Below the pieces are notes generated by a model that made no database searches, was not told the DNA's origin, and worked only from the letters and a program-made list of their open reading frames with translations. The translations under genes and the position numbers were made by a program. 64,000 nt of DNA from Escherichia coli (GTDB taxonomy: Bacteria; Pseudomonadota; Gammaproteobacteria; Enterobacterales; Enterobacteriaceae): assembly GCF_044324785.1 (NCBI RefSeq), contig NZ_CP172127.1, one strand, 5' to 3'. Of this stretch, positions 2,323 through 16,765 are shown piece after piece (the stretch's first letter is position 1; the number at the start of each line of letters is the position of its first letter).

Positions 2323-3891
2323 TTAGCGTGCCGGCTGAGTAGTCGTGGAAGACTGCTCAAAGTGATAGCGACCGGTTTTCAGGCTGCTTGGGCCGAGGCG
2401 TGCAAACTTGAACATTAAGAACAATTCTGCCACCAGGAACAGGGTATACAGGCCGCAAATCAGCACCATTGAGAAGATGAGGTCGCCTGCGGTCAGTGAC
2501 GAGTTCGCCACAGCTGTCGGCAGCACTTCACCGATAGCCCACGGTTGGCGGCCATATTCAGCCACAAACCAGCCCGCTTCTACAGCAATCCACGGCAGCG
2601 GAATACCGTACAGCGCGGCGCGCAGCAGCCATTTTTTCTCGCCAATGCGGTTGCGGATGACACTCCAGAAAGAGAGCGCGATGATTGCCAGCAGCAGGAA
2701 GCCACACGCCACCATGATACGGAACGCGAAGTACAGCGGCGCTACACGTGGAATGGAGTCTTTGGTTGCCTGTTGAATCTGCGCTTCAGTTGCATCCGCC
2801 ACGTTTGGCGTATAGCGTTTCAGCAGCAGACCGTAACCGAGGTCTTTCTTCATGCTATTGAACTGATCACGAACCGCCTGGTCGGTAGAACCAGAACGCA
2901 GTTGCTCGAGCAGAGAGTACGCCTTCATCCCGTTACGAATGCGTTCTTCATGCTGCACCATCAGTTCTTTCAGGCCGATAACTGGAGTATCCACGGAACG
3001 CGTTGCAATGATGCCCAGCGCGTAAGGGATCTGGATCGCAAATTTGTTCGTCTCCTCTTCCTGATCAGGAATGCCGAACAGAGTAAAGGCAGCAGGCGCA
3101 GGTTGCGTTTCCCACTCGGCTTCAATAGCAGCCAGTTTGGTTTTCTGCACGTCGCCCATTTCGTAGCCGGATTCATCACCCAGAACAATAACAGACAGAA
3201 CGGCAGCCATACCGAAGCTGGCAGCGATAGCAAAGGAGCGTTTAGCGAAGGCGAAGTCACGACCTTTCAGCATATACCATGCGCTGATACCGAGGATGAA
3301 CATCGCGCCAGTCACATAACCAGACGCTACAGTGTGAACGAATTTCACCTGAGCAACCGGGTTAAGCACCAGCTCGGAGAAGCTCACCATCTCCATACGC
3401 ATAGTTTCAAAGTTGAAATCGGATGCGATTGGGTTTTGCATCCAGCCGTTCGCAACCAGAATCCACAGTGCGGACAGGTTTGAACCGAGCGCCACCAGCC
3501 AGGTGACACACATATGCTGAACTTTACCCAGACGATCCCAACCGAAGAAGAACAGACCTACAAAGGTGGATTCGAGGAAGAAGGCCATCAGACCTTCGAT
3601 TGCCAGCGGCGCACCGAAGATATCCCCTACATAGTGGGAATAGTAAGACCAGTTAGTCCCGAACTGGAACTCCATGGTCAGACCGGTAGCCACACCCAGA
3701 GCGAAGTTGATACCAAACAACTTGCCCCAGAACTTGGTCATATCTTTATAAATCTGTTTGCCGGAAAGGACGTAGACCGTTTCCATAATGGCCAGCAGGA
3801 ACGCCATACCGAGCGTCAGTGGCACAAAAAGGAAGTGGTACATCGCGGTCAAGGCAAACTGTAAGCGCGACAGTTCGACTATATCTAACAT
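2323..3891 (-). CDS. cydA: Cytochrome bd-I ubiquinol oxidase subunit I
   Basis: ORF-track frame 2323-3894 (MMLDIVELS...); start placed at the second Met ([12 protein letters not shown]...) to give the 522 aa expected for CydA. Confidence 0.96.
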
Positions 3892-4228
3892 CATGACTCC
3901 TTGCTCATCGCATGAAGACTCCGAGAGTGAACCCCGTTAGAAAGGGTCACACGCATGCCCCAATACAAAATTATTTGCTCGCCTCTATCGTTGCCATTTC
4001 ATCAAAAGAGGAAAAGACAATGATAAAAAAGTTACAAATATGTTAATGAATAAACCAAATTGATCCCGTAATTATATTACGCCGCAAAATCCTTACAATA
4101 AACAGGTTTTTATTGAGCAAATTTGCATTTTTCGACAGTGATCAATTTATAGCGAAATTGTCACGACATCACCAATTTGATCTACGACAATTTATCGTGT
4201 TTTGCAGATTTTTTTCAAGAATTAAAAA

Positions 4229-11237: not shown

Positions 11238-12608
11238 ATGGCTCGTTCTTTTAAAGTCTTATCGCCAACGGCAATCCTCGGGTATGGATTCCCGGAAGAG
11301 AGCTTCCGCAAAGCGATGGCAGAATCGCCCGATCTGATCGCCGTTGATGCAGGCTCTTCCGATCCAGGCCCCCACTACCTCGGGGCGGGCAAACCGTTTA
11401 CCGATCGCGCAGGGGTCAAGCGCGATCTGCGCTATATGATCACCGCAGGCGTTCAAAATAATATACCGGTGGTGATCGGAACGGCCGGCGGTTCTGGTGC
11501 CGCTCCACACCTGGAGTGGTGCCGAGAAATAATTCATGAGATTGCCCGGGAAGAGCACCTCTCGTTCTCGATGGCGCTGATCCCAGCAGACGTTGACAAA
11601 GCCATCGTCCACCAGGCGCTGGATAACGGCAAAATCACGGCGCTGGATTTTGTCCCGCCGTTAACCCACGACGCGATTGACGAAAGTACGTATATCGTCG
11701 CGCAAATGGGCATCGAACCCTTCCAGCGGGCGCTGAAAGAAGGCGCGCAAGTGGTGCTGGGCGGGCGCGCTTACGACCCGGCCTGCTTTGCTGCGCTACC
11801 GATCATGCAAGGCTTTGATGAAGGTCTGGCGCTGCATTGCGGGAAAATCCTTGAATGCGCGGCAATCGCCGCAACGCCCGGCTCAGGCTCTGACTGTGCG
11901 ATGGGCATCATTGATGACAACGGCTTTACGCTGAAGACATTTAATCCGAAGCGTAAATTTACCGAAACGTCAGCAGCTGCACACACACTGTATGAGAAAT
12001 CCGATCCCTACTTCCTGCCAGGACCTGGCGGCGTGTTGAACCTGAAAGGCTGCACATTTAAAGCGGTCAATGACGGCGAAGTGTACGTCAGCGGTTCTAA
12101 GCATGAAGAAACGCCGTATGCCCTGAAACTGGAAGGTGCGCGACGGGTGGGCTTCCGCTGTCTGACCATCGCCGGAACGCGCGACCCGATCATGATCGCC
12201 GGGATCGATAAAATCATCGATGAAGTCAAAACCAGCGTTTCGCGTAACCTGTCGCTCGACGATGACAGCATTCGCATCAATTTCCACCTGTACGGCAAAA
12301 ACGGGGTGATGGGCGACCATGAACCGATGCAAACTGCCGGGCATGAGCTGGGGATTGTCCTAGATGTAGTTGCACCGACCCAGGAAATTGCCAACAGCGT
12401 TTGCTCGCTGGTGCGCTCTACTATGCTGCACTACGGCTATGAAAACCGCATCGCTACCGCAGGCAACCTGGCGTTCCCGTTCTCCCCTTCTGATATCCAG
12501 GGCGGGCCAGTATACGAATTTTCCATATATCACCTGATTGAAGCCAACGACGCTCTGCGTTTTGATTTCCATATTGAACAGGTGACGCCAGAAGGAGTTC
12601 AGGCATGA
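11238..12608 (+). CDS. Uncharacterised protein, 456 aa (possibly AtuA/DUF1446-like)
   Basis: ORF 4 bp downstream of mal, same strand and GC content as the cluster; family assignment is from memory of architecture only. Confidence 0.7.
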   Translation: MARSFKVLSPTAILGYGFPEESFRKAMAESPDLIAVDAGSSDPGPHYLGAGKPFTDRAGVKRDLRYMITAGVQNNIPVVIGTAGGSGAAPHLEWCREIIHEIAREEHLSFSMALIPADVDKAIVHQALDNGKITALDFVPPLTHDAIDESTYIVAQMGIEPFQRALKEGAQVVLGGRAYDPACFAALPIMQGFDEGLALHCGKILECAAIAATPGSGSDCAMGIIDDNGFTLKTFNPKRKFTETSAAAHTLYEKSDPYFLPGPGGVLNLKGCTFKAVNDGEVYVSGSKHEETPYALKLEGARRVGFRCLTIAGTRDPIMIAGIDKIIDEVKTSVSRNLSLDDDSIRINFHLYGKNGVMGDHEPMQTAGHELGIVLDVVAPTQEIANSVCSLVRSTMLHYGYENRIATAGNLAFPFSPSDIQGGPVYEFSIYHLIEANDALRFDFHIEQVTPEGVQA

Positions 12609-12922
12609 AACAGTCAATTGTCTCACTGGCGCAAGTCATTCGTTCGAAAAATGCCGGACCTTACGAACTGGTTTTAGATATTTTATTTAAAACCAAAGAA
12701 AACTATGAGCGAGTTAAATCATCAGGGCAATTAACCCCAGAACTGATTGCGCGCTTATATCATGTTGAACCTGACTTTATTCACCGTATTGTCTGGTTTG
12801 ATCCTTCTAACGCAGTAAAAATCGTCATGCCACGAGATATTATCTCCGGGAATGTAGGTGACAATGATGTCTATGGTGCACAGCAACATGCACCTTTATT
12901 AAATATGAGTTTCGATTTGTAA
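12605..12922 (+). CDS. Uncharacterised small protein, 105 aa (possibly DUF4387-like partner)
   Basis: ORF overlapping the previous stop by 4 nt (translational coupling). Confidence 0.6.
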   Translation: MKQSIVSLAQVIRSKNAGPYELVLDILFKTKENYERVKSSGQLTPELIARLYHVEPDFIHRIVWFDPSNAVKIVMPRDIISGNVGDNDVYGAQQHAPLLNMSFDL

Positions 12923-13000
12923 AAATCCGAACATTTTTAGCCAACTGACATCCCGTCACTTATTGCAGTTCAACACTTCAGCTATTTGTAAGGTTGTAAT

Positions 13001-13040
13001 AGCAGGTAGATGCCTGAATCTCTATTCGGGCATCTACTTC
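13001..13040 (+). other. Stem-loop (GTAGATGCC...GGCATCTAC) between the enzyme genes and the symporter gene
   Basis: 9-bp perfect inverted repeat read directly, followed by a pyrimidine-rich stretch; possible internal terminator or attenuator. Confidence 0.3.
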
Positions 13041-13082
13041 TCCTGATTCTGATTTATCGCCGTGCACCTGATGGAGGAAAAA

Positions 13083-14363
13083 ATGAAGAAAATAAGTTTA
13101 ACCACGATGATTCTTTTGGCGCTGGTACTTGGAATGATTATCGGCGTAGTGCTCAATAACACTGCTTCACCGGAAACCGCAAAACTCTATGCGCAAGAAA
13201 TATCGATATTCACGACGATTTTCTTACGACTGATAAAAATGATTATCGCTCCGTTAGTGGTCTCTACCCTGGTGGTAGGTATAGCTAAAATGGGCGATGC
13301 CAAAGCCCTTGGTCGTATTTTTTCTAAAACACTCTTTTTATTTATTTGCGCCTCATTGCTGTCAATTGCCTTAGGCTTGATAACAGTAAATTTCTTCATG
13401 CCAGGCACAGGAATTAATTTTGTTGCACACGGAGCCGAAACCACCGGAGTGGTCGCGTCAGAACCCTTTACGCTAAAAGTATTTATTTCGCATGCTTTCC
13501 CCACCAGCATTGTCGATGCCATGGCGCACAATGAAATTTTGCAAATCGTGGTGTTCTCAATTTTCCTCGGCTGTAGCCTGACGGCGATTGGCGAGAAAGG
13601 CAGCGCCATCGTTCACGCCTTAGATTCGCTGGCACATGCCATGTTAAAGCTCACTGGCTACGTCATGCTCTTCGCTCCCCTGACCGTATTCGCTGCTATT
13701 TCAGCATTGATTGCTGAACGAGGACTGGCAGTTATGGTGAGCGCCGGGATCTTTATGGGTGAATTTTATTTCACCATGTTATTACTTTGGGTGCTGCTTA
13801 TCGGTCTGGCCATCGTTTATGTCGGCCCCTGCATCAGACGCCTGACCCGCGCCCTTTCGGAACCCGCCCTGCTGGCATTTACCACATCCAGTTCTGAAGC
13901 GGCTTTTCCGGGAACGCTTGAAAAACTGGAGCAATTTGGCGTTTCCCCCAAAATTGCCAGCTTTGTCTTACCCATTGGCTACTCATTTAATCTCGTTGGA
14001 TCAATGGCCTACTGCTCCTTCGCCACAGTTTTCATCGCCCAGGCCTGCAATATCCATTTATCCATCGGTGAGCAAATCACCATGCTGTTGATCCTGATGT
14101 TGACCTCGAAAGGAATGGCTGGCGTACCACGCGCCTCAATGGTGGTTATCGCCGCCACGCTCAACCAGTTCAATATTCCGGAAGCGGGGCTGATCTTGCT
14201 GATGGGCGTTGATCCGTTCCTTGATATGGGGCGTTCCGCGACAAACGTCATGAGCAACGCAATGGGCGCTGCGATGGTGAGTCGGTGGGAAGGCGAACAT
14301 TTCGGCGAGGGCTGTCGGGGTAAAGCATTAAAACCCAATGAATCGAACGTTGCTCTGCCCTGA
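13083..14363 (+). CDS. Dicarboxylate/amino acid:cation symporter (DAACS, GltP-like); likely glutamate uptake
   Basis: About 426 aa polytopic membrane protein; start placed at the ATG preceded by GGAGG (ORF track starts at 13062). Confidence 0.85.
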   Translation: MKKISLTTMILLALVLGMIIGVVLNNTASPETAKLYAQEISIFTTIFLRLIKMIIAPLVVSTLVVGIAKMGDAKALGRIFSKTLFLFICASLLSIALGLITVNFFMPGTGINFVAHGAETTGVVASEPFTLKVFISHAFPTSIVDAMAHNEILQIVVFSIFLGCSLTAIGEKGSAIVHALDSLAHAMLKLTGYVMLFAPLTVFAAISALIAERGLAVMVSAGIFMGEFYFTMLLLWVLLIGLAIVYVGPCIRRLTRALSEPALLAFTTSSSEAAFPGTLEKLEQFGVSPKIASFVLPIGYSFNLVGSMAYCSFATVFIAQACNIHLSIGEQITMLLILMLTSKGMAGVPRASMVVIAATLNQFNIPEAGLILLMGVDPFLDMGRSATNVMSNAMGAAMVSRWEGEHFGEGCRGKALKPNESNVALP

Positions 14364-14470
14364 GGGGGATCTTAAGCAATCAGAAGCCAATGACTACGCA
14401 TTTTTATAAGCCGGATCATGAAGTTAGACGGCAATTAAGTAACACTAACGTTTAAGGTGAAAAGTGAAAT

Positions 14471-16738: not shown

Positions 16739-16765
16739 CTGCGCCTGGCATCCCGCCAGGCGCAG
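16739..16765. terminator. Bidirectional stem-loop between convergent adenosyltransferase and LysR genes
   Basis: CTGCGCCTGGCATCCCGCCAGGCGCAG palindrome read directly. Confidence 0.5.

Follow-up and report, generated by a model that had tools for sequence, protein, structure and literature searches.

Intercistronic stem-loops that stabilise mRNA are known from the REP hairpins between malE and malF of Escherichia coli and from the hairpins between pufA and pufL of Rhodobacter capsulatus. RNase E and RNase III process polycistronic transcripts at intercistronic sites such as papB-papA, rpsO-pnp and R1.1 of phage T7. Here we describe a hairpin, H2, located between the enzyme genes and the symporter gene of the glutamate-fermentation (glm) cluster of E. 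coli. Like the malE-malF and puf stem-loops, H2 is a very stable, GC-rich, intra-operonic hairpin without a U-tract that acts in the sense RNA and separates genes whose products are required at unequal levels. Unlike the malE-malF REP hairpins, it is single-copy and locus-specific, belongs to a larger fold and keeps a fixed distance to a start codon. It resembles the RNase E and RNase III sites in that two hairpins (H1 and H2) flank an AU-rich single-stranded linker and in that H2, together with an enclosing helix (stem A), forms an interrupted rod of about 23-26 bp. Unlike RNase III sites, however, H2 offers a continuous duplex of only 16 bp (18 bp with a bulge, to which stem A adds about 7-10 interrupted pairs), which is short for an enzyme that uses about 20 bp or more.

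With rho-independent terminators H2 shares the GC-rich stem, a suitable loop and, in E. coli, Citrobacter sedlakii and Trabulsiella, a U-rich stretch; unlike terminators it lacks a U-tract in 27 of 32 spacers and is intra-operonic, with a start codon 44 nt downstream. Structured 5' leaders, in turn, resemble this RNA, which combines several covarying helices with conserved unpaired bases immediately 5' of a transporter gene and is kept with that gene even in a monocistronic context (Trabulsiella). Unlike riboswitches, thermometers and leaders that sequester the Shine-Dalgarno sequence (SD), it has no Rfam match and no ligand candidate, and its apical helix is dispensable in one lineage. The RNA is a locus-specific, covariation-supported cis-acting element that belongs to none of the catalogued families against which it was compared. 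Among features proposed to regulate the cluster it is the first concrete one, and it is a candidate new entry for RNA-family catalogues. Moreover, it provides a defined target for mutagenesis and would offer a first way into the regulation of the island.

Locus and hairpin

The window, i.e. the whole stretch of 64,000 nucleotides analysed here, contains a glutamate-fermentation (glutamate-mutase/methylaspartase) island of the E. coli chromosome, which is flanked by cydA and sucD. Its genes are arranged in the order glmS, glmL, glmE, methylaspartate ammonia-lyase, AtuA-like, DUF4387, spacer, DAACS-family symporter, class I fumarase FumD and cobO; 3' of cobO follow a strong terminator hairpin (16739-16765) and a convergent LysR gene. 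About one in five complete E. coli genomes carries the island, O157:H7 among them, as do many opportunistic enterobacteria. Citrobacter amalonaticus and Morganella are reported to show methylaspartase activity. In the only study of the cluster, conditions for its expression were sought and none were found (PMC4682846). FumD has been characterised as a mesaconase, while the fate of citramalate in the pathway is unknown and the pathway is incomplete on paper (PMC4682846). Transcript data for the cluster were not found in the literature on its locus tags (ECs0757-0762, Z0890-0895) or on DUF4387. The features relevant to the following analysis are:

12605-12922, + strand: DUF4387 gene (PF14330, E 2.6e-39; RefSeq annotation of the identical E. 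coli locus)
12923-13082, + strand: untranslated spacer of 160 nt, in which the conserved structured RNA (H1, stem A, H2) takes its E. coli form
12945-12981, + strand: degenerate remnant of H1 (alignment columns 24-32/52-60; covariance-model mismatches in E. coli)
12992-13002, + strand: 5' strand of stem A, GGUUGUAAUAG, which encloses H2 (local fold; homologous to GGUUGGU of Citrobacter and relatives)
13004-13039, + strand: hairpin H2, stem 13004-13019/13024-13039, loop CUCU at 13020-13023 (folding, covariation, pair-preserving alleles)
13040-13061, + strand: U/C-rich tail CUCCUGAUUCUGAUUUAUCGCC, which also carries the interrupted 3' strand of stem A (sequence, local fold)
13043-13045, 13054-13057 and 13059-13061, + strand: 3' strand of stem A, interrupted (local fold)
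13073-13077, + strand: SD GGAGG of the symporter gene (sequence; five bases 5' of the ATG at 13083)
13083-14363, + strand: dicarboxylate/amino-acid:cation symporter gene, 426 aa (PF00375, E 2e-102; RefSeq annotation)

DUF4387 is the final gene 5' of the spacer and ends with the stop codon TAA at 12920-12922. An earlier note on this DNA had singled out the 160-bp spacer as the only sizeable gap of the cluster. The spacer is indeed the largest gap, but a second one of 107 nt exists between the symporter gene and fumD (14364-14470), which is unstructured (z +0.8). The GGAGG ribosome-binding site that the note had placed downstream of the hairpin is present, and the motif GATGGAG at this site is invariant in 32 of 32 spacers.

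The note had further described a perfect 9-bp inverted repeat followed by a T/C-rich tract. Both arms were recovered (GTAGATGCC at 13006-13014 and GGCATCTAC at 13029-13037), yet the H2 helix is longer than this and comprises 16 consecutive pairs, 14 of them Watson-Crick, the remaining two being the wobble pairs G.U at 13005/13038 and U.G at 13015/13028. Beyond a one-base bulge, positions 13001-13002 form two further pairs with 13040-13041. The sequence following the stem (CTCCTGATTCTGATTTATCG) is pyrimidine-rich as described but contains no T-run. Folding of the 56-nt segment 12995-13050 yields a minimum free energy of -23.6 kcal/mol compared to a mean of -10.2 kcal/mol for dinucleotide shuffles (z -5.6), with none of 200 shuffles folding as well.

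The helix is also preserved within the species. Of 5426 complete E. coli genomes, 1123 contain the spacer, each in a single copy, and its alleles were counted by exact 41-mer searches. The most frequent of the three main alleles carries A13028, i.e. a U-A pair (611 genomes), followed by the G13028 allele of the window with its U.G pair (315 genomes) and by a third allele that combines A13028 with G13010, by which an A-U pair becomes G.U (96 genomes). All 16 pairs of H2 are intact in each of them, and both allelic stem changes are wobble-compatible on the + strand only. A loop variant (C to T) is present in E. coli as well, and about 100 further genomes carry other alleles. In strain 100416 the DUF4387 gene and the left arm of H2 were lost by an IS1-associated deletion (L002 1749-2570). 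As a separate observation, IS1 is found repeatedly at this spot: apart from the deletion in strain 100416, it lies inside DUF4387 in two ETEC strains (ETEC4077/4079).

Conservation across genera

A genome scan with the symporter protein yielded 80 loci, in which the adjacency of DUF4387 and the symporter gene is maintained across Enterobacterales. The spacer flanks align well in Escherichia, Citrobacter, Enterobacter, Lelliottia, Pluralibacter, Buttiauxella, Salmonella and a Raoultella-labelled MAG. In each of these genera H2 occupies the homologous position; most of its stem sequence differs, and its loop is not conserved across genera. In a sequence-based alignment of 31 spacers from about ten enterobacterial genera (out of 32 spacers in the full set), 93.2% of the H2 cells pair and 13 of 15 pairs have changed on both sides, values that none of 500 column shuffles reach; as a control, sliding the 3' partners by 1-3 columns leaves only 19-48% of the cells paired. 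These covariation counts refer to sequences rather than to independent events, with at least six clearly different versions of the stem among them. The H2 helix is recovered independently by RNAalifold, and in spacers with a DUF4387 gene upstream its stem has a stability of -20 to -38 kcal/mol. The ratio of G.U to A.C cells amounts to 48:12 in H2, 44:7 in H1 and 30:1 in stem A. Such an excess of G.U over A.C points to a constraint on the + strand (sense) RNA and not on duplex DNA or the antisense strand. From these sequence comparisons we conclude that H2 is an RNA-level structure under selection in the sense transcript.

H2 is not free-standing, but forms the apical helix of a larger conserved RNA. 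Judged from the alignment, H2, stem A and H1 together form a structured RNA of about 160 nt that fills the spacer. Its layout is: stop codon; about 20 A/C-rich nucleotides; H1; AU-rich linker; stem A capped by H2; about 44 nt; start codon. H1 lies about 22 nt 3' of the stop codon and shows double changes in five of eight pairs in the other genera; in E. coli, pairing is left only between CUGA (12945-12948) and UCAG (12978-12981). Thermodynamic folding predicts a long-range helix CCAUUGG/CCGAUGG instead, which would sequester the SD. Covariation favours H1, since the changes A27-U57 and C24-G60 keep H1 and break that helix. The AU-rich linker between H1 and stem A is conserved and unpaired, and reads AUUAUUCAUGC in most genera; conserved unpaired stretches are thus seen in the H1 loop (GCUGUAUC) and in the linker (AUUCAUGCGG). 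In stem A (GGUUGGU with ACCAGCC) 93.5% of the cells pair, with changes on one side only, while the E. coli strands GGUUGUAA and UUAUCGCC are taken to differ from those of Citrobacter on both sides, a reading based on a fold from a fixed-window hairpin finder, which is a crude method.

A covariance model of the RNA, R1, was built from the 32 spacers. It matches the window at 12924-13085 with 90.9 bits (E 4e-18), a score that is to be expected given that the window's own spacer is part of the training set, and finds no other match in the 64 kb. A search of Rfam 15 returned nothing in 12923-13085 at E<=10, nor did the homologous spacers of C. braakii, Trabulsiella, S. arizonae and Yokenella match any Rfam family at E<=5.

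With respect to its position, the RNA follows the symporter gene. The end of H2 is 39-47 nt away from the symporter ATG in 32 of 32 spacers. Trabulsiella odontotermitis has no glm gene upstream but a non-coding, AT-rich stretch of about 340 nt and, on the opposite strand, a truncated aminotransferase gene; it keeps the complete RNA with H1, stem A and H2 (R1: 119 bits); nearly all of its H2 sequence has been replaced, yet 11 of 12 positions pair. In Klebsiella oxytoca, an ERIC-like insertion of about 195 nt (L088 2637-2832) separates the DUF4387 stop codon from the RNA, which still adjoins the symporter gene. Together with the fixed spacing, these two cases argue that the RNA goes with the symporter gene and not with the end of DUF4387. 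Another ERIC-like insertion was noted in C. amalonaticus S646 (L023 around 3850-3975), in this case within the RNA, where it separates H2 from the 3' strand of stem A.

The element also has phylogenetic limits. In the Pseudescherichia group H2 is gone while H1 and stem A are kept, so that H2 must be dispensable in at least one lineage. Homologues of R1 were not found in Yersinia, Hafnia, Morganella and Budvicia, where DUF4387 is instead immediately followed by a hairpin of another type with 3-4 U and then by a long AT-rich spacer. A conserved motif, AAAGGTACTGTTTTTCTT, follows the post-DUF4387 hairpin in several spacers of the Yersinia/Hafnia/Budvicia group (L045, L049, L050, L053, L055, L043) and may serve the symporter gene there as an operator or promoter element.

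Functional interpretation

No sigma-70-like promoter was detected on the + strand in or just before the spacer of E. coli or C. braakii, which is a weak negative. Along with the spacer of Yokenella, which measures only 61-64 nt in total, this makes co-transcription of enzyme and symporter genes likely, and a selected RNA at their boundary then renders a post-transcriptional separation of enzyme and transporter plausible. The long GC-rich stem, in view of the missing U-tract in 27 of 32 spacers, has the anatomy of a decay barrier rather than of a terminator; likewise, two hairpins flanking an AU-rich single-stranded linker, with a variable loop, correspond in build to decay barriers and processing sites by which genes of one operon come to differ in mRNA level. 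We therefore tentatively favour, at somewhat less than even chances, the view that the RNA is a boundary element within the polycistronic glm mRNA and acts in cis, after transcription, on stability or processing. It probably tunes transporter relative to enzyme expression.

The present analysis shows the structure, its compensatory conservation, its strand, its spacing and its persistence beside the symporter gene, and from there on co-transcription, cleavage or termination and an effect on stability are inferred. In the proposed mechanism, endonucleolytic cleavage or leaky termination would occur in the single-stranded linker or in the tail, so that each newly formed RNA end carries a very stable stem-loop. 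On the enzyme part, 3'-to-5' exonucleases would be stopped by H1 or H2, and stem A-H2 would be placed near the 5' end of the symporter part. As a consequence, the mRNA levels of enzymes and transporter could differ despite a shared promoter. In E. coli, the U/C-rich tail could possibly add intrinsic termination. Several points argue against the boundary element: Trabulsiella keeps the whole RNA with no upstream gene to protect, which a 5'-leader function would fit at least equally well, H2 is missing in the Pseudescherichia group, and H1 is degenerate in E. coli. In addition, conditions for expression of the cluster were not found (PMC4682846), and cleavage by RNase E or RNase III is not reliably predictable from sequence. 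If the RNA only fixes the enzyme-to-transporter ratio, it would represent ordinary, though well-conserved, fine-tuning of an operon.

Alternatively, H2 and its tail could act as a leaky intrinsic terminator or attenuator at which E. coli polymerase partly stops, thereby lowering symporter, fumD and cobO relative to the enzyme genes. The strong stem is in line with this possibility, and with 16 bp, a loop of 4 nt and -23.6 kcal/mol H2 falls within the range of terminator hairpins (about 5-20 bp, loop of 3-8 nt). U accounts for six of the 12 bases that follow the last G-C pair. Tails were scored with the TransTermHP formula, for which a cut-off of -2.5 applies. This is passed by E. coli (UUCUCCUGAUUC, -2.9, which is borderline for an intrinsic terminator), C. 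sedlakii (-3.4) and Trabulsiella (CUUUUGAUUAUU, -3.3). In contrast, 27 of the 32 spacers score only -1.5 to -2.3; they are devoid of a U-tail, and ACCCUACA follows the stem. Moreover, a scan with a terminator consensus does not call the 16-bp hairpin, the only site found there being a 5-bp alternative stem at 13003-13016, and the true operon-end terminator looks different. The hairpin at 16739-16765 between cobO and the LysR gene is GC-rich, has 11 bp and is likely a bidirectional terminator of the cluster end. Given its absence in 27 of 32 spacers, the U-tail is a lineage feature and termination is not the conserved function. We regard this explanation as unlikely, though for E. coli itself the U/C-rich tail makes it a reasonable competitor or a possible additional function. 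The suggestion of the earlier note, a partial terminator or processing site separating enzyme from transporter expression, thus holds as far as a selected sense-RNA structure does lie at the boundary and an expression-separating role is plausible, but does not hold for termination as a conserved function.

A role as translational or factor-responsive leader of the symporter gene appears similarly doubtful. Here, the rod of stem A and H2 would bring the 3' arm of H1, acting as an anti-SD, beside the ribosome-binding site, and a ligand, a protein or temperature would operate the switch. The fixed distance between RNA and ATG and the retention of the RNA by the symporter gene in Trabulsiella and, despite the 195-nt insertion, in K. 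oxytoca speak for such a leader. As in regulatory 5' leaders, a multi-helix, covariation-supported fold with conserved unpaired nucleotides (H1 loop, linker) lies upstream of a gene. Pairing of the H1 3' arm with UGGAGUA is possible in 92.9% of the cells, with all variation in the arm keeping the pair, and the SD is predicted to be unpaired with a probability of 0.07-0.47. Yet the anti-SD register was selected as the best of many, and, because the SD is invariant, no double changes are possible in this pairing. Resemblance between the 5' arm of H1 and the ribosome-binding site, as expected for a duplication that mimics the SD, reaches significance in Salmonella alone (3/2000) and is not seen in E. 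coli, and this candidate was rejected. For a sensor, H2 is furthermore unusually long and perfect, its loop is not conserved, it is missing in one lineage, and no Rfam family corresponds to it. That H1, stem A and H2 constitute an undescribed riboswitch-like or protein- or temperature-controlled translational switch of a glutamate-pathway transporter, with H2 as the rigid arm that places the anti-SD, is in our view quite improbable. If true, it would represent a new class of regulatory RNA in Enterobacteriaceae and a handle on the inducing signal of the island.

We also considered the RNA as a target of the small RNA GcvB, whose R1 region (distinct from the covariance model R1) pairs with C/A-rich loops. 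This candidate was rejected: the E. coli leader pairs with -19.9 kcal/mol compared to a background mean of -21.8 kcal/mol for 56 other 5' regions, and the leaders of other genera fall between the 9th and the 79th percentile, i.e. no better than background.

H2 could, in principle, be a stable hairpin that has no function and merely persists by descent, for which its absence in the Pseudescherichia group and the loss of its left arm in E. coli strain 100416 might be cited. Since neutral drift would destroy a 16-bp helix, whereas compensatory changes in 13 of 15 pairs keep 93% of the cells paired despite heavy sequence turnover, we consider this highly improbable.

An element acting at the DNA level, be it a palindromic operator for a dimeric regulator or a remnant of a REP or mobile element, can for practical purposes be dismissed despite the near-perfect 36-bp palindrome, the LysR-type regulator gene at the cluster end and the GTAG...GCCTGA of the hairpin, which we take to be loosely reminiscent of REP sequences: the sequence turns over while the pairing holds and the 48:12 bias of G.U over A.C favours the + strand, on which grounds a DNA operator or cruciform was rejected; in addition, H2 is single-copy and occupies an orthologous position in about ten genera. 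With regard to REP/BIME elements, H2 occurs at one place per genome in the 1123 E. coli genomes, the 41-mer being found once per genome, and a search of the window for other copies of H2 returned none beyond its own arms and three matches with three mismatches, which is about the number expected by chance. Comparison with the REP consensus led to the same rejection, as a genuine REP pair of C. braakii (GCCGGATGACGC...TTATCCGGCC), located in the next spacer, is unlike H2. This spacer between the symporter and glutaminase genes of C. braakii (L030 5306-5430) is in itself a canonical REP pair (BIME) with -53 kcal/mol and z -6.2.

Further observations on the cluster

In the window, a terminator-like hairpin (GGTGCAC...ATGCACC followed by TTTATTAAAT) is located at 12875-12894, within the last 50 nt of the DUF4387 coding sequence. 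The DUF4387 gene (105 aa) and the AtuA-like gene (456 aa) together span 11238-12922 with a stop/start overlap. The pair lies between the ammonia-lyase and symporter genes in nearly every enterobacterial cluster examined, one MAG (L043) being without it, and neither gene has a known function. As the fate of citramalate is unknown (PMC4682846), the pair is a candidate for the missing pathway step.

A glutaminase gene (PF04960) is found between the symporter gene and fumD in Citrobacter, Klebsiella and Enterobacter (e.g. C. braakii, L030 5431-6432). E. coli and S. enterica are without this glutaminase and show a short symporter-fumD spacer instead (14364-14470 in the E. coli window). A contig labelled 'Collinsella sp. 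MAG' (L007) carries the E. coli cluster at 98-100% protein identity and is probably mis-binned E. coli. Morganella (L038-L042, L046-L052) possesses two symporter paralogues about 36 kb apart, one 3' of DUF4387 and the other 5' of fumD-cobO with its own 500-nt upstream region. In Yokenella, two copies of a repeat of about 125 nt (L037 5332-5454 and 6495-6618) lie between the symporter gene and fumD, both giving weak, sub-threshold matches to the Rfam family V_AS5.
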